DNA of 64,000 nt from an uncultured Methanosarcinales archaeon (GTDB lineage: Archaea > Halobacteriota > Methanosarcinia > Methanotrichales > Methanotrichaceae), in contig CAWJKV010000002.1 in the NCBI GenBank assembly GCA_963843555.1, forward strand, positions 1 to 64,000, read 5' to 3'. Below, one piece after another: positions 2,942 to 45,025 of this stretch. Both the position numbers and the translations under genes were made by a program. Below the pieces are notes generated by a model, which worked only from the letters and a program-made list of their open reading frames with translations, was not told the origin of the DNA and made no database searches. Each line of letters opens with the position of its first letter. The stretch's first letter is position 1.

Positions 2942-4519
2942 TTAAGTAGTTTCAATTTGTCTGCAATCCCCAGCATTTCTGTAAAGAATATTATAAGCGC
3001 AGAACGGTATGACCCTCCCGTCAGGCAAAGAATAATGGATGCCACATCTCTGCAGCCTCTCCAGATCAATATTATAGGCATCCTGGAAGTGCATGGTTCC
3101 AATAAAAAGGGTCTTTTTATGGAACTCTCTCAAAGATTCACGTGTCCCATTTCTAAAGATGCTGATGAGCATTCGAGTTAATTTCAGGTCGCTTGGTGCC
3201 AGATCCTCATCCACAAACTTGGGCAGCTCCTTTAATATCATGCCGGTCATCTTAAGCTTACTAAAGCTGGATCCATTGAAGTTCTCAGCCTCTATCCTGA
3301 TTCTTTCCAGCAGCCCTTCGACATCGATAAATCTCGTCAAGGGAACCAGACGGCCATTGAACTTGTAAACGTAGGTAGCAGCGCCGCAGCAAGGATGAAT
3401 GGTAAAGACAGGTTGGACCCTATCTGACTGTGCAGCTAATAGCTCAGATAGTGGAATTATGAAAGGTATGGGATAAAAGTCATCCCGTGTAATCTCGTTG
3501 TTCATCTGCTCCTCTAAAAGGGCAAAGAAATCTGGTATAGTTATCCTTTTTTCTGCTCTTTCCTCTGCATCCATCCTTCCAGTGAACGAGATAGGCTGGA
3601 AGTTCACACCATTAACTATATCCAGGTTTTTAGAGGCGAATCCAACTATTTCTCCCACCTGATGATCATTTATGCCCTTTGCAAGCGTTGGAACCAGCAC
3701 CACGCTTTCCAGGCCTGCCTTTTTTAAATTCTCCAGGGCCTGAAGCTTTATTGGCAGAATATCCCGGCCGCGATTCGATATATATGGCTCAGGAGTTACT
3801 CCATCGAACTGGAGGTAGGCCGTGTTCAGGCCGCTTTTCTGGATCGATTTGCAAAATTCCAGACTTTTAGCGAGGCGCAGGCCATTAGTCGCTATCTGGA
3901 TCTGCGAAAAACCCAATTTTTTAGCAAGGCTAATTATCTTTGGCAGATCGTCTCTCAGGGTCGGCTCGCCACCAGAAAACTGTACGGCCGGACAGGGGGC
4001 CGGTTTTTCTGCTCTGAGATTTTTCATCATAGACCAAATTTCGTCCAAACTGGGGTCCAGATGGTCGCCTCCGGCATCAGCAAAACATATAGGACAGGCC
4101 ATATTGCATCTGCTGGTCAGATCTATGTTACCAAGCAGGGTGCTCGTGATATGATTTTTGCAGATGCCGCAATCGAGAGGACATCCCTTTTGCTCTGAGG
4201 TAAGGTTGCTTGATTTGTGACCGTTCTGCAAATACTTAATGAATCTTTTATATAATATTGCATCGGACCAATAAATCTCCCGAAAACTTCCATGATCATC
4301 GCACTCTTTCTCCATGAGGACCTTGCCATTCTCCTGAAATATGTGTGCTGAAACCACCTTGAGGCATACAGGACACAGAGAGGATACCGTTTTATCAATA
4401 GCACCCCTCGAAATGTCGGTCAAGGTAATATCCGTACCTTTCGCATTGTCCGCGATGGGCACGTCCCAACATATGACGGAGTCAGACTGAACAAATGGTC
4501 CTTCACGGATTCTTGACAT
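2942..4519 (-). CDS. tes: Radical SAM protein, tetraether lipid synthase (Tes/GDGT-MAS, MJ0619) family
   Basis: N-terminal CPVC..ECDDHG site, GCPLDCGICKNH, CNMACPIC radical SAM motif, SGGEPT, HPCCG, C-terminal RCGIHY..PDGRVIPFCAYN. Confidence 0.8.
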   Translation of the reverse strand: MSRIREGPFVQSDSVICWDVPIADNAKGTDITLTDISRGAIDKTVSSLCPVCLKVVSAHIFQENGKVLMEKECDDHGSFREIYWSDAILYKRFIKYLQNGHKSSNLTSEQKGCPLDCGICKNHITSTLLGNIDLTSRCNMACPICFADAGGDHLDPSLDEIWSMMKNLRAEKPAPCPAVQFSGGEPTLRDDLPKIISLAKKLGFSQIQIATNGLRLAKSLEFCKSIQKSGLNTAYLQFDGVTPEPYISNRGRDILPIKLQALENLKKAGLESVVLVPTLAKGINDHQVGEIVGFASKNLDIVNGVNFQPISFTGRMDAEERAEKRITIPDFFALLEEQMNNEITRDDFYPIPFIIPLSELLAAQSDRVQPVFTIHPCCGAATYVYKFNGRLVPLTRFIDVEGLLERIRIEAENFNGSSFSKLKMTGMILKELPKFVDEDLAPSDLKLTRMLISIFRNGTRESLREFHKKTLFIGTMHFQDAYNIDLERLQRCGIHYSLPDGRVIPFCAYNILYRNAGDCRQIETT

Positions 4520-18035: not shown

Positions 18036-19139
18036 AGCCAGCGATATCATGTGGGCTGACGGGGAGCAGCTCGCTCAGATGTTCTTCCTTTTGGGCGTGG
18101 AGCCGGTCTGGAAGGGCGGGCGCGTCAAGAGTTACAGAGTGATGAGTCTCGAAGAGCTGAATAGGCCCCGGATCGATGTAACTGTGCGGGTCAGCGGATC
18201 ATCAGAGACTGCTTCTACAACTGCATCGAGTTGCTCGACCAGGCCATTCAGGAGGTGGCTGCTCTTGACGAGCCCGAGGCTATGAACTTCCTTCGCAAGC
18301 ACTCCTTGCAGGGCAGCAGCCACGCCCGCATCTTCGCCAGCCGCCCGGGAACTTACGGAAATGGAGTGAACTTAGCCGTCTATGCTTCCGCCTGGAAGGA
18401 GGAAAAGGATCTCACTGACGTCTTCATTCAATGGAACAGCTATGCATATGGCAAGGATATCTTCGGCCAGGAATCAGGGCAGGCCCTGGTGCAACAGCTC
18501 AAGAGTGTGGACCTGACCTTCAATAAGACCGTCACCGATGAGTACGACCTCTTGGGATGCTGCTGCTACTTCGGCACACACGGCGGCCTGACCAATGCCG
18601 CCCGCGAGCTTTCCGGCCATGAAGTCTCGTCCTACTACGGGGATACGAGGGACCGGGAGAATGCCGAGATCAGAACCCTGGCCGATGAGATGCGCCGTGT
18701 GGTTCGGACACGGCTTCTCAACCCCAAATGGATCGAAGGAATGAAGCAACATGGCTACAAGGGCGCGGGCGACATCTCCAAACGCGTGGGCCGGGTCTAT
18801 GGCTGGGAAGCCACGACGGAAGAGGTCGACGACTGGATCTTCGACGATATCGCCAAGACCTTCGTCCTTGATGAGGAGAACCGCAAGTTCTTTGAGGAGA
18901 ACAACCCCTGGGCCATGGAGGAGATAGGCCGCAGGCTCCTGGAAGCCGAGCAAAGGGGGCTGTGGAAAGCTGACCAGGAGGTGCTGGACGCCCTGAAATC
19001 CAGCTACCTGGAGATTGAAGGCTGGATGGAGGAGAAGATGGGCGAGACAAACGGATCCTTCCAGGGCGGAAGCATCGATGTCATGCCATCGGAGCATGCC
19101 CGGGCCTGGAGGGATATGATTTCTAAAGCTAAGCAGTAG
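18036..19139 (+). pseudogene. cobN: CobN/BchH-type chelatase, C-terminal portion only
   Basis: DIMWADGE..GVEPVW, RPRIDVTVRVSG, RTRLLNPKWIEGMKQHGYKGA, NPWA..RLLEA..RGLW; N-terminal majority of the protein is missing. Confidence 0.85.
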
Positions 19140-20311: not shown

Positions 20312-21922
20312 ATGAAAGCAAAGTATGGAATAGCAATAGCTTTGTGTGCCCTGATGGGGCTGGCAACGAGTTCAGAGCTGCAAAACGAGAGTTCTGGACC
20401 GCAAGCTGAGGAACTCGCAACCGGGCTACAGCAGGACACCTATAACGACAGCCCCGAGCTGAACGGGGTGCAGCGCCTGCCGGGAAAGCTGCCCCCGGAT
20501 ATGCCCGTGGACCTGCCCATTCCTGATGGAGCCAGGATCGCGGAAAGCGAGATCCAGGAAGATTCGATAATCTTTGTGATCCTGGATGTCCCCATGACAC
20601 CGGATCTGACTCTGGACTTTTACCGGAAGCGTTTGACATCTCAAGACTGGACGGAGATTCCAGGGATGAACCGGGGGTTTGTAGAACAAGGTGTTTTCAG
20701 CGTGAATTTCTGCCAGGGTCCCAATAATTCCTCGCTGATAGTCACCGCTACTCCTCAGGAAAATGGAACTGACCTCTGTATTAGCGTCATGAGCGACACT
20801 GATTATTCATTCTGCTCACAGGGCCCGAGCTTCTTGGATGACTGGCTGATGCCAATTCCCATGCTGACTGGACCCAACGGAACCAGGATGCTCTACGCGG
20901 AATCCATGGGCGGTCCCGACAGTATGCAGGCGGTCTCGGCAACTCTGGAGACGGAGATGAACAGTTCCTCTCTGACGGACCATTATGCCGATCAGCTCAA
21001 GGCAGCCAACTGGACAATGATAGGCGCAGACGAGAGCGGTCCCTCCTCCTGGAGCTCTTGGAGCTACAATAATGAGGATGGCCGGGCCTGGGACGGTTTC
21101 TTGATGGCTCTGGAGCTTCCCGGGACTGATGAGAAACAGAGGTTCGTCTTAATGCAGGCCACCTATAACTACAGCCTCGAGCTGGACGGGGTACAGCCCC
21201 TGCAGGAAAATCTGTCCCAGGATATGCCCCTGGACCTGCCTATTCCTGAGGGTGCCAGGATCGTGACAAATGAGATCGAGGAAGAAACAGGAATCCTTGT
21301 GATTCTGGATGTCCCCCTGACACCGGAGCTGACTTTGGATTTCTATCGGGAGCGTCTGGCCTCTCAAAACTGGACGGTGATCGAGATTCCAGGCATGAAC
21401 CAAGGATTTGTAGAACAAGGTGTTTTCAACAAGGCGTTCTGCCAGGGTCTCAAGAATTCCTCGATGGCACTTACCGCTACTCCTCAGGAAAATGGAACTT
21501 ACCTCAGTATGAGTATCATGAGTGATCCTGATTATTCATTTTGCTCACAGGGACCGAGCTTCTTCGGTGACTGGCTGAATCCAATTCCAATGCTGACTAT
21601 ACCCAACGGAACTATGATGTTCAACCCGAACTCCATGGGCGGTCCAAACAGTACGCAGGCGGTCTCGGCAACTCTGGAGACGGAGATGAACAGTTCCTCT
21701 CTGACGGCCTATTATGCCGATCAGCTCAAGGCAGCCAACTGGACAATGATGAGCGAAGGTGAGAGCGGTCTCTCTTCCTGGAGCATCTGGAGCATCGAGG
21801 ATGAGAATGGCCGGGCCTGGCAAGGTTTCTTAGTGGCTCTGGAACTTCCTGGAACTGATGGGAAGCAGAAGTTCGTCCTAATGCAGGCCAACATGTTGGA
21901 GAATTACTTCTTGAATGTATGA
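20312..21922 (+). CDS. Secreted protein made of two tandem repeats of about 241 aa
   Basis: Signal peptide; nucleotide-level repeat units about 20438-21160 and 21161-21889. Confidence 0.85.
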   Translation: MKAKYGIAIALCALMGLATSSELQNESSGPQAEELATGLQQDTYNDSPELNGVQRLPGKLPPDMPVDLPIPDGARIAESEIQEDSIIFVILDVPMTPDLTLDFYRKRLTSQDWTEIPGMNRGFVEQGVFSVNFCQGPNNSSLIVTATPQENGTDLCISVMSDTDYSFCSQGPSFLDDWLMPIPMLTGPNGTRMLYAESMGGPDSMQAVSATLETEMNSSSLTDHYADQLKAANWTMIGADESGPSSWSSWSYNNEDGRAWDGFLMALELPGTDEKQRFVLMQATYNYSLELDGVQPLQENLSQDMPLDLPIPEGARIVTNEIEEETGILVILDVPLTPELTLDFYRERLASQNWTVIEIPGMNQGFVEQGVFNKAFCQGLKNSSMALTATPQENGTYLSMSIMSDPDYSFCSQGPSFFGDWLNPIPMLTIPNGTMMFNPNSMGGPNSTQAVSATLETEMNSSSLTAYYADQLKAANWTMMSEGESGLSSWSIWSIEDENGRAWQGFLVALELPGTDGKQKFVLMQANMLENYFLNV

Positions 21923-21988: not shown

Positions 21989-22322
21989 CGTGATCGGGAT
22001 TTGCCTCTTGTGAAGAGACAGATCCTTTCGCCGCACGCCAATCGCCGAGTGTGGGGTTATAGCGATGAAAAGATCGAATCCCCTGTTGCAGCTCGCATTT
22101 TCTGGAATTCTGGTATCTACGATCATGGGCCAGGGTTATACGATGCCGATCCTATTGGTATGATTTCGATCATCTTTTTTCAGAAGAGGAGTCCGGCCTT
22201 GGCAGTTCGGCCGGAGCCCAACGACAGGCGGATGAACGGTAAAGGAGGTCAATCACTTTTCTGTCGCTATTCCTGAGATTAGGATATAACCTGTTAATAA
22301 GCTTTTTGTATTTCGTAGCAAT
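21989..22322. repeat. Copy 2 of dispersed direct repeat (core 22176-22322)
   Basis: See copy 1 at 14938-15352. Confidence 0.9.
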
Positions 22323-22362
22323 AAGGCACTTGGTGAGTGCACTGGCGCGTTATCCGCCCATC

Positions 22363-23158
22363 TCAGTCATCCTCATAAATCGGCTTCTCCGGCACCAGGT
22401 AGATGGTCCAGAAGACCAGGAGGGTTATTATGGCCTTTACTATGATGATTGGTCCAGATCATCTGCTGCAGGCCTGCAGCTCCCACTATCCCCGCAAAAG
22501 CGATGAGGGGAAAGAGCAGGCTGTCCACAGGGATGGAGACGGCATTGGAGGCGAAGACCCGCGTCCACTGCGGCCAATTTCGCCGTTTCCCGCGCGTCCA
22601 GAGGTGATAGACCTTGGTATCGATCAGCTCGGCCAGCAGCGCCGTCAGTATGGAGCCTATGACGATCCTCATCTGCAGGGAGAATATCGATTGCCACCCA
22701 GAGCCCGAGGTGTCTATGATGCCGAAGAGGAACGCCCAGGCCGTCTGGCCTCCGCTATTTGCCCAATCCGTTTGGGCGGGCAGCAGAACCACCAGTTGAA
22801 AATAGAGAGCGGCGAGCAGGTTGAAGCCCGCCGCCAGCCAGATGGTGGTTATGGCCGCCTTTTGGCCGAGCTGCTTATGGATCAGGTCCCGCCAGGTGAA
22901 GGTCAGGGAATATATGAAACCGGCATCCATGACCAGGCTGCCGAAATAGGTGACCTTGGTGGCGGCAATGTTTCCTGCCAGCGAGAAGAAAAGGTACAGC
23001 CCGCAGAGAATTATGGTGGCCTGAGTCTTGTCGATGCGGAGTCTGCCGCCCAGGAGCCCATTTCTGTCCGGTTTGCCTATGTCTTCTGGCTCCTGTACAT
23101 TCGCTTCCTGGCTCTGCTGCTGTCTTTGTCTGCGATCTGCTAAATCGTTCTCAGCCAT
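22363..23158 (-). CDS. yhhQ: Queuosine precursor transporter (QPTR/YhhQ, VUT family); frameshift near 22445
   Basis: NIAATK, YSLTFTWRDLIH..G, RIVIGSILT.L.AEL.DT.VY, W.RV.ASN.VS.P.DS.LF..IAF. Confidence 0.85.
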
Positions 23159-24558
23159 TTATTCTTGAGTTCCATAAAAGTCCCTGCTCTTATGCTTTCC
23201 CTAAGATCTCTCCATGAAGCGGAGCATGAAATGGAGATTATGAATCGTTGCTAACCGGAAATAGGAGAGCTCCCCGCAGACGTAAAGATGGCGAAGATAG
23301 GCTCGCGAGTAGGTGCGGCAGGTCGAGCAGCTGCAGTTGGGGTCGAGGGGCAGCTCATCTTCTTTGAATTTAGCTGACTTTATATTTATGTGGAACTTGT
23401 TCTGCAAGCGATCCGCCCGATTCCGGCGAGAGGAAGAGGCTTCCCCTGCGAGCGATTCTCGTCGGCGAGACGCAGTCGAAGGTATCGATTCCTCTGGCTA
23501 CGCATTCAAAGATGTCGTCTATCTCCCCTATCCCCAGGAGATGGCGCGGCCGGTCGTCCAATCTGGGAACCGTCCAGTCCAGAACCTGATGCATATCTTG
23601 CTTGCTGTTTCCCAGAGATCCGCCGATGGCGATGCCGTCAAAGGATTGGGATGCGATGGCTTCGGTGCTCATGCCGCCGCAGGTCCTCAAACCAACCGCC
23701 CTGGATTATGCCGTAGATGGCCTGGTTTTTGTCGTGATACCGAATGGACTGATCCGCCCAATCATGGGTTCGCAGCATGGCTTTCTTGGTGTATTCGTAG
23801 TCGGAGAGGGGAGAAGTACATTCGTCAAAAGCCATGATGATGTCGGAATCGAGATTGGACTGAATTTTCATCGACTTTTCCGCATTCAAGAAATGCCAGG
23901 CTCCGTCGGCCATGGACTTGAAGGAGATGCCGTCGTCAGTGATCCTGGTCAGATTCTCCTTCTTCACTATTTTTGGACCTTTCTTGGCAATCTCTCGGGA
24001 CCTTTTGCTCCCTTCGCTGCTCTCACCATAGTCCCTTCTGTAATTCGATTTATAAATCTCGCAGAAGTCAGTTGTGTCCTGACAATCGCCATCTTCTGAA
24101 CACTCACTGAGAGGCTGTTTTAAATCGTGCTGGTTTGAATTGCCCCCCCCTTCTGGAAGAGACTCTTTTTTCTCTTCGCCCGCGGGGCAGGAGAGCTCCT
24201 GCGGGAAGATGTTACCGATCTTGCTGATGTTGTGCTCTCTTCCAAAGCCCAGAGAGAAGGCCTGAAAGCCGCCCGAGTCGGTAAACAGCGGCCCGGCAAA
24301 TCCCATGAACCTGTGCAGCCCGCCCAGCCGTTTGATCAGCTCGTCTCCCGGCTTCAGGTGAAGATGGTAGGTGTTGGCAAGAGCGCACTGGACGCCCAAA
24401 GATGCCAGATCGTCTGAGCCAAGAGCTCGCACGCTTCCCAGGGTTGCCACCGGCACCAGATAGGGCGTCTCGATATCTCCGCGCCTGGTTCTTATCAGCC
24501 CGAGCCTGGCCTGAGTCTCTTTATCCTGGTCAAGGATTTCAAAAGAAAATCTATTCAT
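23140..24558 (-). CDS. tgt: Bacterial-type tRNA-guanine(34) transglycosylase; about 3 frameshifts
   Basis: [62 protein letters not shown], Zn site [18 protein letters not shown]; no PUA extension. Confidence 0.9.
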
Positions 24559-24756
24559 TTCATATTACCTGATCTGATCCCTGGTTTCATGACTCATGTG
24601 CCATGTTGTTTATGGACTTTATGGCATTGCACTTCCTGACCATTCTAATTCTCATGGAGTCTACGACGAACACATAAATTGTGTCTAAAGGTTCCATTTT
24701 GCCAAACGCCAAATCCTTAATATCAGGAGAGTATTGGGACTAATGGTGATTTTCTC

Positions 24757-25197
24757 ATGTCAAAAAGCCAACGCATTGTGCTGCTATTTCTTGCGCTATC
24801 AATTCTCTCGATCTCGGCTATGGCCCAGAGCTCGAATTATAGCGTGAACCTATCTGCAAACAAGTTCCTGGGCAGCTATCTTGTTAACCAGAGCGGCTTT
24901 GCCCTTTACTACCTATGCAAGCGACAGAAGATGCCAACGGCGCCAGCGCCTGCTATGATGCATGTGCCAACACGTGGACGCCATTTTATGCAGAAAGGAT
25001 AACCTCACCGGACGGTCTGAATCCCGCGGACTTTGCCACCATAACCAGAACCGACGGATCAAGGCAGACGACCTATAAGGGCTGGCCGCTCTACCTCTAT
25101 TCCAGGGATCGAAGCCGCTGGCGATGTTTTCGGAAGTGGCAAAGAAAACGGCCTCTGGCACGTCGTCAGCCCGACGGATCAATCTCAGCTCTTCTGA
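24757..25197 (+). CDS. Second COG4315/Lipoprotein_15 secreted protein (frameshifted)
   Basis: GSYLVNQSGFALY, SACYDACANTWTPF, RTDGSRQTTYKGWPLYLYSRD, GLWHVV across frames. Confidence 0.8.
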
Positions 25198-25275
25198 AAT
25201 CCTGCAAGAGAAAAATATGATTGAATTGTGAGGCTTCGACTCTGAGCCTCACATCCAACTCAATCTTATCGCCTG

Positions 25276-25837
25276 CTACTTCTTTAGCGATCCTATGGTC
25301 GTCGGGATGGCAGCATAGGGAAAGATCTCAAATCCGCGGGGGAACTTGAAGCTTCTTTGGCCAAGCTCCTTATCCGCGGCCTTCAGGGCAGCGCTGTCAC
25401 TTCCCGCCGCCTGAACTCTTTTCAGGACATTGTCCGAGGACTCCTCTTCTTCCACCTGCTCCTCCACGTACCACTGCAAGAAGCACTTCGTCGCCTGCGT
25501 CGGACTCGCTCTCGGCTACGTCCACAAGCGCATGAATGAGCCCGGTCACCGCCCGCTCATGATCCCAGACGTGCTGGAAAGCCTGCAGGGGCGAGTCCCA
25601 GGAGAACTGTGGGGCTTCCACCGCCATCATCCTGGCTCTTCCGCCGGAATTTGCCACGTAGTCCAGCATCTTCATGGTATGCACCAGCTCCTCTCCCGCC
25701 TGTGCTCTCATCCAGCTGGCAAAGCCCGTCAATGCAGTCGACTCAAAATAGTAGGACATGGAGAGATAGAGATATGAGGAATACAACTCTCTATTCGCCT
25801 GCACATTCAGAGCTTCATTCATCTTTTCGCTGAGCAT
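25276..25837 (-). CDS. ftn: Ferritin (frameshift near 25500)
   Basis: LNVQANRELYSSYLYLSMS, QAGEELVH, HERAVT, LQWYVEEQVEEE. Confidence 0.9.
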
Positions 25838-26045: not shown

Positions 26046-26933
26046 TCACTCACCACTTATCTTTCTTAGACTTCGATCTAAATAAAATCTTCCAGCGCGT
26101 GCCGCTATCTTTGCATCTCTCTCGGCAAGATTCGGCTTGAATTCAAGGAAGGCCTGGTCCAGCCGGGGCGCATCAATCTCGTAGAACTTGCCGAGGGGAA
26201 TGGGTTTTTCAAGGCTGTCATAGTTCCAGGAGCGGATGATCTTCTGGGCCTCTTCAAAGCTGCCGGTATTGTTTCCCTGCACCTCGTAGGTCATCTTGTT
26301 GTAGCCTCGTACAGGTTGAAGTAGGATACACAGACCTGGAGCACATCCACAAAAGAGAAGCCCTTATGCAATATCGCTTCGCGGAAGAGCTTCTGCAGTT
26401 GTTCAATGCCGTGCGTGTAGCCCCGGGCGATAAAAGAGGCTCCACTGGCAAGCATCAGATCGGGTGGGTTCAGGGGATGCTCAGCTGAGCCCGCGGGCGT
26501 GGACTTGCCTTTGAAGCCCAGCGGCGACGTCGGCGTGTACTGGCCGGTGGTCAAGCCGTAGACGCGGTTGTCGTGCAGGATCAGGGTTATGTCGATGTTC
26601 CTCTTGGCCGCGAAGATGAGATGGTCCAGTCCCTCGGCCAGGCTGTCGCCGTCTCCCGAGAAGCAGATAACCTTCAGATCGGGATTGGCAAGCTTAATGG
26701 CCGTGGCTACAGGCAATCGTCCGGCCGTGGATGGAATAGAAGCTGTTCACATTCATGTAATCCACGATCTTGCCGTGGCAGCCGATACCGGAGACCAGAA
26801 CGACCTTCTCTATGGGGAAGCCTTCTTCGTCCAGCTGTGCCAGAACAGTCCTCATGGCGCTGAGGATGGAGAAGTTGCCGCAGCCGGGACACCAGGTGTT
26901 CTTGGCTGAGGTATTGAGATCTTTAGGATTCAT
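26046..26933 (-). CDS. 2-oxoacid:ferredoxin oxidoreductase beta subunit (frameshifted)
   Basis: NTWCPGCGNF, SGIGCHG, IHGR, GDGD TPP motif, NRVYGLTTGQYTPT, LQVCVS. Confidence 0.9.
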
Positions 26934-42602: not shown

Positions 42603-43274
42603 ATGGACCGATTCCCTCTTTTTGCCATCATCCTGGCAGCAATTCCAGTATTGGCAAGCGGGCTGGATCTGGCAGGAAGTGCCCTTCTCCTGGGCATTAT
42701 TCTTGGGGGAGCTGCGGCATTGCATATCTATAACCTGTGGAGGGTTCATAGAAAAATAGAATCGTTAGAACACTCCAGCATAACTAAAGAGAGCTTTTAT
42801 AATGAACTGGCCATTGCCCAGGGCTCAAACTTCTCTGCTCTGGCTCTTGCGGCATGGCTGATGCTCATTGTGGCTATCGCTTATCTCTATTTCCTGGTTC
42901 CGACAATTCTCGCCATCAGCTACATGCAGATTCCAGACCTGGCATCCAGTCCAAACGGTTTTGTCACCTATGGATTGGCCATTGCCTCGGCGGCAACAAT
43001 TTTGATTCTCGGCCTTGACAAGCTGCCTGAGAGCTATAGGGAGTTCAAGCTGACAGAGCTGTACAGTTTCTACTCCATCTCAAAGGAGGCGAAGAGAACG
43101 ATCGTCCTGACCATTCCCGCCCTCAGTATCTCGATAATTTGCTCGGCTTATACCGGCACCATCTATCCCGCGCATGATCCACTTGCTGAGAGCCTGTCTT
43201 TAATCCTCCTGGCACTCTCGGCAGGAACGCTGGTGGCTATCATTTATAAGGACGCAGTGGAGGGATGGAGATGA
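42603..43274 (+). CDS. Polytopic membrane protein (about 5-6 TM), unknown function
   Basis: Hydrophobic segments; starts 2 nt after upstream stop; ATGA overlap with next gene. Confidence 0.8.
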   Translation: MDRFPLFAIILAAIPVLASGLDLAGSALLLGIILGGAAALHIYNLWRVHRKIESLEHSSITKESFYNELAIAQGSNFSALALAAWLMLIVAIAYLYFLVPTILAISYMQIPDLASSPNGFVTYGLAIASAATILILGLDKLPESYREFKLTELYSFYSISKEAKRTIVLTIPALSISIICSAYTGTIYPAHDPLAESLSLILLALSAGTLVAIIYKDAVEGWR

Positions 43275-45025
43275 AATTGTGTGTAGTTGGCATCGGCGGA
43301 GCTGGCGGCAATGTCACCCGCGAGTTCATAGGAAATGTTGATCTTGATTTTAATCTGATTTCCAGCATAACCAAAGCCGAATATATATCCCCAGGCATGA
43401 TGAAAGGAATATGGCTTGACGCTGACAAGAATGATGCCCGTAACCTTCAGCATTTCTTTGGAGATATCAACGATGGAGCATATCCGGCTTTCTTCATCCC
43501 ACATGACGCTATTGAAGATGCGTCAGATATTCATATTTTTGTGAAAGAGAAGTACGGCTACGATGTAAAGAAGCAGGGTTTCGTGAGAGACGCCCAGTAC
43601 ATAAAAGCCATCTTTGAGATCTTCGATAGTGATTGCGAGATACAGGAGTTGGCAGCGAGAGAATTCGATTTGCTGGATTCAAGAGACAGGAATGGCAACT
43701 CGGAAGAGATGGAGAAAATTGGTCTCAAAGAGGATCCGAATAACGGTAACGGCAATGGTAATGGCAATGGTGTCGGCAATAGTAACTGCAATTCTTTCAA
43801 GAAACAGGCACCCAATCCCATCTTCGATTGCGCCTGGAAAACGATCAAGCCTTACACTACATTAGGTGGCGGCAACTGCGATGGCATTCTCTTCATCGTA
43901 TCTTTTGGTGGCGGCACAGGAACTGGATTTATAAACCCCATCATCAGCCACATCCGAAATGAAGGTAATGCAGACTATCCTGTATTCGTCCTGGGAATTC
44001 TAACTGAGTTTGGCGACTTTGCTGATCGGGCTCAGTTTTCTGAGGAAGGGCGCAGGAATCTGGCGGCAACAAGCGCTCTTTACGACCTGCTCACAGAAAG
44101 TAATGGAGCCAATGGAGTCATCCTGATTGACAATCAGATTCTGGTAGATAAGTTTGGGAAAGATTATGCGGCTATGAACAAGTTCATCTACCAGATGATG
44201 ATGCCAATGGTTTTGGGGCGCGACTACCCTGGAGAGACCCCACCGAGCCAGGCTGTTGCTCATAATTTCACTAAGGGCCTTTCCAGGCCGCCTCTATTCG
44301 TACCGCTTTTCTCGACCATTTCCCGGTGCAAGAATCCAGAAGAGGAGCTGGTCAGAAGAGCTCTTGCGACGGGGAGGCTCTTCGGCTGCACGCCTGAGAA
44401 GGCCGATATTGCGGTGGTCTTTTGCCGGGGGTTTGTCGATTCAGAGAAGATCAGGAAGGCTTTATCCAAGCAGACCGGAATAAGTGAAGGGAAGATTTGG
44501 GTACTGCGAAAGATGGGTGAAGAGAACGATGAGATCCTGATTATGCTCAGGAATCCTTATGGTGACGATCCCCGGGCTTACACCCGCGAGGGAACTCTGG
44601 AGAACAGGTTTTGCAGGGTGATCTCCATGGCTCTCCAGTACATGAATCAAAATGCAGAGGACCTCTTATGTGAGGGCAAGGATAGCCGGAAAAGAAGCAA
44701 AGATGGTTCGGATGAATCAATAAAGCTCACGGAAAAAGCAAAGCATGCTCTGGAAAAGTTCTTCTTTGGGGAACAGGGATTTATAAGAGACAATTTCGGC
44801 AAAGAGGCGGGTTTTGCCTACGAGCTACGGGAGGCCAGAAGGAGGCTGAGGGATGGAGAGAAGCCCTTTTTCATTTATCCCATGAGGATCTATCCAAAAA
44901 GCGATAGGGTTTTGGAAAATAGCGGAAAGAATTACTGCCAGGACGAAGATGAAATCTCCCGGATCGTTGATAAGCGGATTAAAGAGATACTGGCGGAACA
45001 GGGATTGCTGAATATTGGATGCTAA
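43271..45025 (+). CDS. Divergent tubulin/FtsZ-superfamily (CetZ-like) protein
   Basis: MKLCVVGIGGAGGNV (T1), SFGGGTGTG signature (43907-43927), PVFVLGIL, VILIDN..L, Y..MN..I; long C-terminal extension. Confidence 0.88.
   Translation: MKLCVVGIGGAGGNVTREFIGNVDLDFNLISSITKAEYISPGMMKGIWLDADKNDARNLQHFFGDINDGAYPAFFIPHDAIEDASDIHIFVKEKYGYDVKKQGFVRDAQYIKAIFEIFDSDCEIQELAAREFDLLDSRDRNGNSEEMEKIGLKEDPNNGNGNGNGNGVGNSNCNSFKKQAPNPIFDCAWKTIKPYTTLGGGNCDGILFIVSFGGGTGTGFINPIISHIRNEGNADYPVFVLGILTEFGDFADRAQFSEEGRRNLAATSALYDLLTESNGANGVILIDNQILVDKFGKDYAAMNKFIYQMMMPMVLGRDYPGETPPSQAVAHNFTKGLSRPPLFVPLFSTISRCKNPEEELVRRALATGRLFGCTPEKADIAVVFCRGFVDSEKIRKALSKQTGISEGKIWVLRKMGEENDEILIMLRNPYGDDPRAYTREGTLENRFCRVISMALQYMNQNAEDLLCEGKDSRKRSKDGSDESIKLTEKAKHALEKFFFGEQGFIRDNFGKEAGFAYELREARRRLRDGEKPFFIYPMRIYPKSDRVLENSGKNYCQDEDEISRIVDKRIKEILAEQGLLNIGC

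Follow-up and report, generated by a model that had tools for sequence, protein, structure and literature searches.

A frameshifted tgt–yhhQ gene pair in a Methanothrix contig

The window (i.e., the whole stretch of 64,000 nucleotides that was analysed, from contig CAWJKV010000002.1 of an uncultured member of the Methanotrichaceae) carries two genes on its minus strand that overlap by 19 nt (23140–23158), namely tgt, whose product is a homologue of the bacterial tRNA-guanine(34) transglycosylase (TGT), and yhhQ, whose product would be a membrane importer of the QPTR family (Table 1). Both reading frames are interrupted, with three frameshifts in tgt and one in yhhQ, and all four lesions consist of a single extra base in the window. 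When the frames were joined, the tgt stop, the yhhQ start and the overlap proved to be those of the initial annotation, exact to the base, and the TGT motifs quoted there (DSGGFQ, FDECT, QGG and CxCxxC..H) were all found in the translation of the pieces. Specifically, the first tgt piece covers the TIM barrel's N-terminal half; DSGGFQ (Asp102) is followed there by the variable insert, AFDECT (Asp156 and Cys158) and GIIQGG (Gln203). At the yhhQ frameshift, the ORF in the window ends in the wrong frame, where relatives read WTNIIVKA... An Rfam scan of positions 22000–25200 at E ≤ 1 for RNA elements or riboswitches returned a single chance-level match only.

Table 1. Genes, gene pieces and frameshifts of the tgt–yhhQ locus (positions of the window).
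Feature	Position	Strand	Basis
tgt	24558→23140	minus	ATG 24558; stop TAG 23142–23140; four frame pieces (tblastn with intact relatives)
tgt piece 1 (residues 1 to ~295)	23674..24558	minus	TIGR00430 230.3 bits; tblastn
Charged low-complexity insert (~100 aa) after FSLG	23943..24243	minus	alignments; relatives' DNA matches skip query 507–736
tgt piece 2	23409..23669	minus	GGSLGNS pocket loop (23624–23604) and catalytic TFDCV (Asp280); TIGR00430 104.6 bits
tgt piece 3	23210..23401	minus	zinc site CSCSTC...H; TIGR00430 87.4 bits
tgt piece 4	23140..23208	minus	C-terminal helix and stop TAG; coding match 23208–23143
yhhQ	23158→22363	minus	ATG 23158; stop TGA 22365–22363; one frameshift near 22446
yhhQ/QPTR piece 1	22449..23158	minus	PF02592 100 bits
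yhhQ piece 2	22363..22443	minus	last transmembrane stretch IVKAIITLLVFWTIYLVPEKPIYEDD; coding 22443–22366, then TGA
Frameshift 1 (tgt)	23670..23680	minus	extra base absent at 23673 or 23680 in contigs of runs X2, X3 and X4; frame change 23674/23669
Frameshift 2 (tgt)	23402..23409	minus	extra base absent at 23407 or 23409 in runs X1, X2 and X3
Frameshift 3 (tgt)	23208..23209	minus	extra base absent at 23208 or 23209 in runs X1, X2 and X3
Frameshift 4 (yhhQ)	22444..22448	minus	extra base absent at 22446 in runs X1, X2 and X3

Integrity of the locus

The locus was matched in 23 of 24 genomes of the same genus, single-contig genomes included, with conserved synteny and 74–83% nucleotide identity, and tgt was read as intact (430, 449 and 453 aa) beside yhhQ, with the neighbouring korB, ferritin and lipoprotein genes kept (two of the three complete or near-complete genomes read). 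Comparison with four congeners yielded dN/dS values of 0.11–0.17 for tgt and 0.11–0.21 for yhhQ, and the corrected frames contain no stops. Moreover, each of the four frameshift sites is one base shorter in three of four independent metagenome runs, in contigs (88–99% alike) that stem from related strains and not demonstrably from the source strain, no run having contained more than 0.19 of the sampled words. Frame switches also occur across the genome, where a comparison with a complete congener showed them in 14 of 76 orthologues (18 switches in all, or 0.27 per kb), with those of FtsY, SufB, CobQ and iPGM among them. Since the related contigs lack the extra bases, so many other genes are broken and dN/dS is low, the four frameshifts are almost certainly assembly errors rather than marks of decay, which is how the initial annotation had treated them.

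For the frameshifts to be real, both genes would have to be recently inactivated pseudogenes in the source strain. Four frameshifts within 2.2 kb, and a density in the 22.4–26.9 kb region that is several times the genome mean, would suit such a history, as would the related-strain origin of the compared contigs; loss does occur, given that in congener G020 (93% complete) a 134-aa fragment is all that is left of tgt and yhhQ is missing. We nevertheless consider inactivation very improbable, as like breaks in FtsY, SufB, CobQ and the other affected genes would be unbearable for a free-living cell, the adjoining ferritin, korB and lipoprotein genes show breaks of this kind, and the lesions are all single extra bases, with no stops, deletions or surplus amino-acid changes. 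An origin of the region in misassembled bacterial DNA or in bin contamination is scarcely credible. The best-known relatives of both genes are bacterial, and the source genome is a draft (18 contigs, 3% contamination), but the synteny across congeners extends to single-contig genomes, the GC content at the locus is unremarkable without any break, and the flanking genes (CDC48, aCPSF, KaiC and a methanopterin-pathway radical SAM enzyme) are archaeal and methanogen-typical. On these grounds the contig is not chimeric, a point on which the initial annotation had called for a check.

A bacterial-type TGT with a shortened pocket loop

The profile of the canonical bacterial Tgt (TIGR00430/PF01702, EC 2.4.2.29; E. 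coli b0406 and the Z. mobilis enzyme) has a cut-off of 306.75 bits for a whole protein; each of the three matching pieces in the window stays under it when taken alone (Table 1), and the intact orthologues of the family score 443–479 bits. The archaeosine TGT (TgtA/arcTGT, TIGR00432) is of the same superfamily and is encoded in the same genome, with a distinct tgtA and an arcS-like gene on contig C7. Unlike TgtA, however, the TGT studied here has no PUA, C1, C2 or other C-terminal extension, the intact relatives (430–453 aa) ending at the C-terminal helix, and it scores only 78.7 bits on TIGR00432, against a cut-off of 350. It is thus of the bacterial G34 type and not a TgtA, as had been annotated from the sequence at the outset.

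Aligned to E. coli Tgt (~43% identity) and to the Z. mobilis chains, the protein retains Asp102, Asp156, Gln203, Asp280 and the zinc site CxCxxC...H, as well as Cys158; the first four are the catalytic and base-binding residues in Z. mobilis TGT numbering. The AlphaFold model of an intact relative (pLDDT 90.1) spans the whole Z. mobilis TGT fold, with a TM score of 0.93–0.95 (target-normalised) and an rmsd of mostly ~1.5 Å. The fold search was set aside as a discriminator between queuine-type and preQ1-type enzymes, the top matches being all Z. mobilis TGT variants of equal score; that a V233G triple mutant came first among them carries no significance. In contrast to canonical Tgt, the Methanothrix protein bears a large insert after FSLG, which varies between 55 and 100 aa within the genus and is predicted to be disordered (pLDDT of 44–67 for the corresponding part of the relative's model). 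The idea that this insert is a mobile or palindromic element was rejected, since the genome contains it only once and neither direct nor inverted repeats were found in it. With respect to possible tRNA targets, a check for GUN anticodons found genes for tRNA-Asp, tRNA-Asn and tRNA-His, all three with U33-G34-U35, and no tRNA-Tyr gene.

The pocket loop reads GG-SLGNS, which is one residue shorter than the preQ1-type GGLAVGE of canonical Tgt and does not match that motif, and Asn stands in place of Glu235, a residue that eukaryotic queuine enzymes retain. HMMER placed the loop in two registers, with position 233 being Gly in one and Leu in the other, and MAFFT together with close relatives (VSVGESKEEM vs. 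SLGKSKKDM) favours the loss of residue 231 and a Val233-to-Leu change over Val233-to-Gly, the change associated with an enlarged pocket in queuine-inserting TGTs (eukaryotic QTRT1, Chlamydia type). Cys158 is kept (AFDECT), where the aligned TGTs of a Chlamydiae MAG and of Arthrobacter have Leu (FDEL) and eukaryotic TGT has Val (PMC5699537). Queuine-salvaging TGTs “typically contain GG[LS][AS]G” in the wording of PMC11570991, a supplementary legend of which places a GGSLG loop 4.0 Å from modelled queuine and treats the motif as queuine-compatible in tgt-only bacteria. The resemblance to queuine-inserting TGTs that the initial annotation had seen in GGSLG therefore stands for the motif, which agrees with this legend, but is weakened by the retained Cys158 and the ambiguous register of the loop.

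Coupling to a QPTR-family transporter

The yhhQ product clears the PF02592 cut-off of 27.2 bits (Table 1) and scores 50.5 bits on TIGR00697, just under the cut-off of 50.95, on the frameshifted ORF; linked orthologues score 95–117 bits on PF02592. The coupling of the TGT gene to a YhhQ/QPTR gene, already pointed out for this window, was found to be a feature of the family: a YhhQ match lies within ~1 kb of the TGT in ~65 of the 70 Methanotrichaceae genomes whose TGT exceeds the cut-off (by hand comparison of listed coordinates), and both genes are absent in G125 and G105.

A second, standalone type of YhhQ was present in 15 of 16 cases in a Methanotrichaceae genus without the bacterial-type TGT (0 of 16), and another genus (g10) has both types, standalone and linked. 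Since standalone YhhQ occurs in genomes that lack a bacterial-type TGT and both types coexist in g10, the linked transporter is suggested to do something other than feed archaeosine synthesis. In a 16-row tree, a very long branch carried the linked YhhQ inside an archaeal group of weak support (87/85), without a usable link to any characterised transporter, and the tree was discarded as a predictor of substrate. Among characterised transporters, the QPTR of Chlamydia carries queuine and that of E. coli, the archetype, carries preQ0 and preQ1, as summarised in PMC11130926.

Queuosine pathway genes and phylum survey

Profile searches found queA in none of the five genomes examined and in none of 99 Methanotrichaceae, queF and queH in none of the five, and, for queG, only sub-threshold Fe–S matches in the source genome and the five genomes. 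The absence of queA, queG and queH initially noted for the window thus extends to the whole genome, with sub-threshold Fe–S matches as the only candidates for queG. With no match for queA, queH or queF and nothing above threshold for queG, the de novo route could not finish queuosine. In contrast, queC (four of five genomes) and queD (five of five) were found; both supply archaeosine, and since relatives make preQ0, an endogenous substrate exists. A search for the queuine-releasing hydrolase Qng1/DUF2419 matched none of the five genomes, and its control likewise matched in none.

Within a 401-genome sample of the phylum, 63 genomes carried a bacterial-type TGT over the cut-off and seven carried queA, with 56 having a bacterial-type TGT but no queA (Methanotrichaceae and three further families). 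The seven queA genomes all fell in families f4, f5 and f9, and the loci read in f4–f6 and f9 had a canonical pocket adjoining queA. Conversely, queA was found in 0/12, 0/64 and 0/54 genomes of families with a GGSLG-type TGT. Every locus read in the phylum conformed to this division, i.e., a canonical pocket with queA, or a GGSLG pocket with yhhQ and no queA. In a set of 80 named loci (four unreadable), yhhQ adjoined 6 of 32 non-canonical TGTs vs. 0 of 44 canonical ones, and queA adjoined 1 of 32 vs. 22 of 44.

Phylogeny and comparison with known systems

In two trees, the Methanothrix TGT fell outside the canonical clade (support 99 and 96) and grouped with TGTs of Chlamydiae, Actinomycetota, CPR bacteria and a Thermoplasmatales MAG, the last of which also carries a tgt–yhhQ pair; organisms with TGTs near this one mostly lack queA. 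The protein belongs to a largely archaeal GGSLG-type group, which comprises Methanotrichaceae, the three further families of the phylum and the Thermoplasmatales MAG. A bacterial donor was sought in vain, the deep branches being too weak (support 84–88). The initial annotation had proposed horizontal acquisition of the module by this archaeon, a proposal that found no support, as the pair is family-wide in Methanotrichaceae, the group is largely archaeal and no donor was resolved; a recent bacterial acquisition of the pair is not supported.

The arrangement resembles that of Chlamydia trachomatis, for which PMC11130926 and PMC11570991 summarise direct queuine salvage by a bTGT and a QPTR. Both have a tgt–QPTR pair in a genome without QueA, QueG, QueH and QueF, the Chlamydia-type TGT likewise lies outside the canonical clade, and its loop is likewise non-canonical and one residue shorter than GGLAVGE (GG-SMGKNKEEM in a Chlamydiae MAG, a sequence that is not of C. 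trachomatis itself). Unlike Chlamydia, however, the Methanothrix host is an archaeon with TgtA/ArcS that makes preQ0; its TGT bears the 55–100 aa disordered insert, is only ~38% identical to that of the Chlamydiae MAG and has Cys rather than Leu at position 158, and its linked YhhQ is a long-branch form of its own. The canonical bacterial Tgt shares the fold, the lack of a PUA domain and the catalytic, Cys158 and zinc residues, but differs in the loop, in Glu235 and in that queA, which adjoins E. coli tgt, is absent from the searched Methanothrix genome.

The gene is already named by NCBI, and bacterial-type TGTs in archaea are not new as such: Castelle et al. (2021, PMC8204110) described tgt–queA(–queH) clusters in 34 archaeal genomes, among them DPANN members and Methanosarcinales (e.g., Methanoperedens), and no Methanothrix appears in ten of the 17 TGT rows of Table S5 of that paper. 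Those clusters encode G34 TGTs of the bacterial type in the same class of archaea, but their pockets read GGLSIGEPKE or GGLCIGEPKE, they adjoin queA, they are 30–34% identical to the Methanothrix TGT and they form a separate clade inside the bacterial canonical TGTs, whereas the Methanothrix locus is of the salvage type with yhhQ. Bartonella henselae, finally, is likewise a tgt-only genome with QPTR, for which reconstruction alone leaves the substrate unsettled, but its TGT keeps GGLAVG and clusters with preQ1-type proteins (PMC11570991), neither of which holds for the Methanothrix TGT.

A proposed salvage route to position 34

Our main reading, to which we assign a probability of roughly 60%, is that the pair is a working two-gene Methanothrix operon, with frameshifts introduced by assembly, that couples QPTR import to G34 exchange, queuine being the most likely substrate. 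The transporter would import a 7-deazaguanine base, and the TGT would remove G34 of GUN-anticodon tRNAs (Asp, Asn, His and Tyr) and insert the imported base, most likely queuine released by neighbouring bacteria. Since the genome has no QueF, QueA, QueG or QueH, the inserted base could not be matured on the tRNA and would have to arrive in its final form. What was observed directly is that relatives have intact genes, that both products belong to their families, that catalytic and zinc residues are conserved, that the genes are coupled, and which pathway genes are present or absent; from there we infer that position 34 is modified, that transport is inward and that the base is queuine.

Salvage of a base into position 34 has good support. 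Among the possible substrates queuine is the likeliest, though unproven, with Cys158 kept and preQ0 endogenous. Accordingly, the proposal in the initial annotation that queuine is scavenged from bacteria is upheld in its salvage part by the importer coupling and the finishing genes not found, and is more tentative as to queuine itself. Literature searches on queuosine in Methanothrix/Methanosaeta and on its salvage in archaea returned no nucleoside data for Methanothrix tRNA and nothing on the pair; Castelle et al. (2021) was the sole relevant paper.

The same machinery might instead insert preQ1 or preQ0 and leave it as the final wobble modification, the base being imported by YhhQ or, for preQ0, self-made. 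The retained Cys158, as in preQ1-type enzymes, and the presence of queC and queD in the genus are in keeping with this, as are the preQ0 and preQ1 transport by the archetypal E. coli QPTR, the expectation of preQ0 salvage in archaea voiced in the YhhQ paper (PMC5372724) and the preQ1 salvage proposed in the Bartonella paper for two tgt-only lineages without QueA, i.e., Bartonella and Pelagibacter (PMC11570991); the loss of Glu235 could furthermore favour a nitrile-bearing base, if Z. mobilis mutant work is a guide. Yet the lineages proposed as preQ1 salvagers keep GGLAVG (PMC11570991), which the Methanothrix TGT lacks, this TGT groups outside the canonical clade, and the distribution of standalone and linked YhhQ suggests a separate role for the linked transporter, so that we regard insertion of preQ1 or preQ0 as rather unlikely. 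Much less probable still is a target other than G34 (DNA, as for DpdA, or another RNA site), with YhhQ supplying preQ0. Members of the TGT family have been co-opted for the modification of DNA (PMC5699537), the large lineage-specific insert lies beside the active-site face, and one piece gave a weak DpdA match (21.7 bits, cut-off 200); against this, the intact relatives are TIGR00430 equivalogs at 443–479 bits, the fold is that of bacterial TGT, and no dpdB- or dpdC-like partners were seen among the neighbour genes read.

Implications for a possible archaeal queuosine

In textbooks, queuosine belongs to bacteria and eukaryotes and archaeosine to archaea, and Q34 is usually said to be absent in archaea. 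Genes for the finishing steps of the bacterial de novo route have been reported in a few archaea (PMC8204110). Methanothrix ranks among the most abundant producers of methane, and a salvage-only pair in it suggests that the decoding of Asp, Asn, His and Tyr codons is shaped by a micronutrient of bacterial origin; the methanogens concerned live in syntrophic consortia. Extended beyond the genus, a dedicated and largely archaeal TGT/QPTR salvage clade would put a bacterial-made base of the queuosine family at the wobble position in many methanogens, an extension that we hold to be tentative and somewhat short of an even chance. The association of pocket type with queA or yhhQ within one archaeal phylum can guide annotation, and since cultured Methanothrix exist, as do complete genomes in which the genes are intact, archaeal Q34 is open to a direct test. 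Were the extension to such a clade to hold, Q34 would no longer be a trait of bacteria and eukaryotes alone, and acetoclastic methanogens of global importance would rely on bacterial partners for a micronutrient of translation.

Gene Layout and Family Assignment

The tgt and yhhQ genes lie on the minus strand in an overlapping arrangement, with the yhhQ start codon preceding the tgt stop by 19 nt, and the positions assigned in the initial annotation (22363, 23140, 23158, and 24558) proved exact. The motifs quoted there were likewise all confirmed in the TGT, which shows DSGGFQ, FDECT, QGG, GGSLGNS, FDCV, and CxCxxC..H. In an NCBIfam search, three tgt pieces matched TIGR00430 (G34 Tgt) with 230.3, 104.6, and 87.4 bits, while the TgtA model reached no more than 78.7 bits (cut-off 350), in agreement with the proposal that this is a G34-type TGT rather than the archaeosine enzyme TgtA. 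A tgtA and an arcS-like gene are also found in the same genome (on contig C7). YhhQ matched PF02592 with 100 bits. In NCBI, these TGTs already go by the name "tRNA guanosine(34) transglycosylase Tgt [Methanothrix sp.]", and such names assign the locus to Methanothrix (Methanotrichaceae). The 23071–23140 segment encodes a charged N-terminal YhhQ tail, 46–67 nt of which is skipped in contigs from related strains, so tail length differs among strains.

Features of the tgt–yhhQ locus and its neighbors in the window
Feature	Coordinates	Strand	Basis
tgt	ATG 24558 to stop TAG 23142-23140	minus	frame pieces set against intact relatives
tgt frame pieces (n = 4)	24558-23674, 23669-23409, 23401-23210, 23208-23143	minus	comparison with intact relatives
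yhhQ	ATG 23158, readable to ~22449, frame change near 22446, TGA 22365-22363	minus	
TGT pocket loop GGSLGNS	23624-23604	minus	
secreted lipoprotein gene adjoining tgt, split	24757-25002 + 24915-25220		
ferritin gene, split by frameshift	25397-25837 + 25276-25479		
2-oxoacid:ferredoxin oxidoreductase beta subunit (korB), split by frameshift	26694-26933 + 26291-26716		

The Frameshifts Are Read as Assembly Indels

Three frameshifts in tgt and one in yhhQ, which the initial annotation had regarded as errors, were compared with Logan contigs from four metagenome runs harboring related strains (88–99% alike); these contigs do not stem from the window's own sample, as the share of sampled words found in any run was at most 0.19. 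The contigs lacked exactly one base at 22446, 23208 or 23209, 23407 or 23409, and 23673 or 23680, with three of the four runs showing each difference, so that all four lesions correspond to single extra bases in the window. Further small indels occurred in single contigs (e.g., at 24533, 22585/22589, and 23203/23210). Genome-wide, frame switches were surveyed with 141 query ORFs of a complete congener, of which 76 whose orthologue in the window genome was ≥60% identical were kept, and the 65 without one were dropped. Such switches affected 14 of the 76 orthologues (18 in total, or 0.27 per kb), and the broken genes include those for the SRP receptor FtsY, SufB, CobQ, iPGM, a MiaB-like enzyme, and a P-type ATPase. 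Frameshift density near tgt far exceeds this average, with at least eight frame breaks between 22.4 and 26.9 kb.

The corrected frames contain no in-frame stops and show low dN/dS values against four congeners (0.11–0.17 for tgt and 0.11–0.21 for yhhQ). Together with the extra bases absent from related strains and the breakage of genes across the genome, these values uphold the view that the frameshifts are errors, and we read all four as assembly indels. That tgt and yhhQ would instead be real but very recent pseudogenes seems highly improbable. Elsewhere in the window, the 18231–19139 ORF matches only the last 260 of the 1090 positions of a CobN/Mg-chelatase model; it seems that the gene is cut short or interrupted upstream, likely through a further assembly indel.

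The Locus Is Native to the Genus

DNA of the locus was present in 23 of 24 same-genus genomes (74–83% identity), there is no GC break, and the other window genes are archaeal and methanogen-typical, which argues against the contig being a misassembled bacterial insert. A DNA-level search found the locus in none of 16 genomes from other families of the class. All three complete or near-complete congeners read carry an intact tgt (430, 449, and 453 aa) followed by yhhQ, and two of them share the korB, ferritin, and lipoprotein neighbors of the window. A 93%-complete congener (G020) retains only a 134-aa tgt fragment and no yhhQ (locus L021, G020:C1:92500-98500, about 3085-3375), which looks as if the pair had been lost naturally; ~0.7 kb from this fragment is a 227-aa ORF of unknown family.

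Two further ORFs of the window were noted. The 536-aa secreted-looking ORF at 20312–21922 has no Pfam match and consists of two near-identical halves of ~260 aa each (an internal duplication), and the 586-aa ORF at 43265–45025 gives a weak Tubulin/FtsZ GTPase-domain match (34 bits, barely above the cut-off of 33).

Fold, Pocket Loop, and Insert of the TGT

An AlphaFold model of an intact relative's TGT (not the window copy), made from a 59-sequence alignment, had a mean pLDDT of 90.1 and superposed on the Z. mobilis TGT with a target-normalized TM score of 0.93–0.95 and an rmsd of mostly ~1.5 Å. Alignments show that the TGT keeps its catalytic Asp residues and zinc site as well as Gln203 and Cys158 (Z. 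mobilis numbering). Whereas the pocket loop of the canonical E. coli Tgt reads GGLAVGE, that of the window TGT (GG-SLGNS) is one residue shorter and lacks Glu235. Two registers compete for this loop: in one HMMER alignment, position 233 is taken by Gly, the residue of queuine enzymes, while a second HMMER alignment and MAFFT delete residue 231 and have Leu at 233, a register favored by comparison of close relatives (VSVGESKEEM vs. SLGKSKKDM). Unlike canonical TGTs, the window TGT also carries a charged insert after "FSLG"; this insert spans 55–100 aa with variable length within the genus, has a pLDDT of 44–67 in the model, and is single-copy without repeats.

Pathway Genes and Substrate tRNAs

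The window genome (82% complete) and four near-complete congeners were searched for pathway genes. No queA, queH, or queF was found in any of the five, and queG yielded sub-threshold Fe-S matches only. queD was present in all five and queC in four, the missing one being the 82%-complete window genome. This gene set would allow synthesis of preQ0 for archaeosine, but not of preQ1 or the finishing of queuosine on tRNA. The tRNA-Asp, tRNA-Asn, and tRNA-His genes carry U33-G34-U35; the tRNA gene check of the window genome found no tRNA-Tyr gene.

Coupling of TGT with YhhQ

By PF02592 score, Methanotrichaceae have two YhhQ types, a tgt-linked one (~95–117 bits) and a standalone one (150–189 bits). 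Both occur in genus g10, and only the standalone type occurs in the genus without TGT (15 of 16 genomes). Hand comparison of coordinates placed a YhhQ match within ~1 kb of the TGT in ~65 of the 70 Methanotrichaceae genomes with TGT, the exceptions being two cases at contig ends, two genomes whose YhhQ lies elsewhere, and one genome that is not listed. Two genomes (G105 and G125) lack TGT and YhhQ together. Two or three distinct YhhQ lineages can be discerned in the family (loci L139, L140, L144, and L145): a long-branch, tgt-linked one; a standalone one that the largest family of the class also has; and one, resembling the tgt-linked YhhQ of Thermoplasmatales, whose gene is close to tgt in genus g17.

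Among 80 named loci (4 unreadable), yhhQ adjoined 6 of 32 non-canonical vs. 0 of 44 canonical TGTs, counts that underestimate yhhQ adjacency since only Methanothrix-linked queries were used. queA adjoined 1 of the 32 vs. 22 of the 44.

Distribution and Phylogeny

In the class sample (201 genomes), 82 genomes had a TGT above the TIGR00430 cut-off; they cover the majority of Methanotrichaceae genera plus three other families in which all 12 genomes have it, with none among the 86 genomes of the largest family. queA was found in exactly those 12 and in none of the 99 Methanotrichaceae. In the loci read, the TGTs of these three families are canonical (GGLSIGEPKE, ~370 aa, beside queA) and only 30–34% identical to the Methanothrix TGT.

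In the phylum sample (401 genomes), 63 genomes had a bacterial-type TGT and seven had queA, the latter in families f4, f5, and f9. The 56 TGT genomes without queA comprise 10 of 12 Methanotrichaceae, 37 of 64 in f8, only 8 of 54 in f15 (a family of another class, with the Methanotrichaceae-type pair), and one further family. In loci read from f8 and f34, the TGT has a GGSLGKSK.DM pocket and 49–54% identity to the Methanothrix type, with YhhQ within the flank in five of seven. The f15 TGT (GGSLGN(S/C)KSDMHQ) is 64–67% identical, and its linked YhhQ ~75% identical in all four loci read (L154–L157). In f4, f5, f6, and f9 (L042–L050 and L152–L153; both f9 loci read included), a canonical-pocket tgt lies directly beside queA (12/12 in the class sample, 7/7 in the phylum sample), matching the tgt–queA cluster already published for Methanoperedens and DPANN by Castelle et al. 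2021 (PMC8204110), with which bacterial queuosine genes in archaea are already in print.

The TGT tree (154 rows), built from the best 150 matches out of 1.84 billion representatives searched, split into two halves (support 99): 70 rows with non-canonical pockets, Methanothrix among them, and 84 rows with (L/V)(A/S)VGE pockets, including the queA-linked archaeal TGTs. The canonical clade kept a support of 96 after the named loci were added, and its archaeal members are monophyletic (100) within bacterial canonical TGTs. The Methanotrichaceae clade (98) neighbors a Thermoplasmatales MAG, Aenigmatarchaeota, CPR bacteria, Bipolaricaulota, Actinomycetota, and a Chlamydiae MAG. TGTs of f15 nest within it, indicating transfer between families, and those of f8 and f34 make up a separate clade (99). 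Methanotrichaceae/f15, f8/f34, the Thermoplasmatales clade, and some bacterial lineages are joined in one group with loose support (84–88). These trees point to no bacterial donor, and recent acquisition from bacteria is not borne out.

Proposed Base Salvage

The reading with the best support is base salvage, in which YhhQ would import a 7-deazaguanine base that TGT would exchange for G34 of GUN tRNAs. We put the probability of such salvage, with queuine as the likeliest base, at roughly 0.6. Queuine is favored because the genome encodes nothing to mature preQ1 on tRNA, because archaeosine could be served by the separate standalone type of YhhQ, and because the TGT groups with tgt-only lineages that are predicted, or for Chlamydia shown, to use queuine (PMC11130926 and PMC11570991). 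A supplementary legend of the latter, moreover, puts a GGSLG loop 4.0 Å from modeled queuine. The retained Cys158, the lost Glu235, the uncertain loop register, and the availability of endogenous preQ0 speak against queuine. The same mechanism with preQ1 or preQ0 as the base we deem rather unlikely.

Literature searches found no paper on a TGT–QPTR salvage pair in methanogens. By the filter given in its methods, PMC11570991 left genomes carrying QueC, QueD, and QueE out of its tgt-only survey; the available part of its Table S2 lists no archaeal taxon, and "archaea" gave no match in its two supplementary files.

From the sequences of the loci read, the rule is that a GGSLG pocket goes with yhhQ and without queA, and a canonical pocket with queA. 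Within one archaeal phylum, tgt–yhhQ pairs occur commonly and keep to this rule in the loci read.
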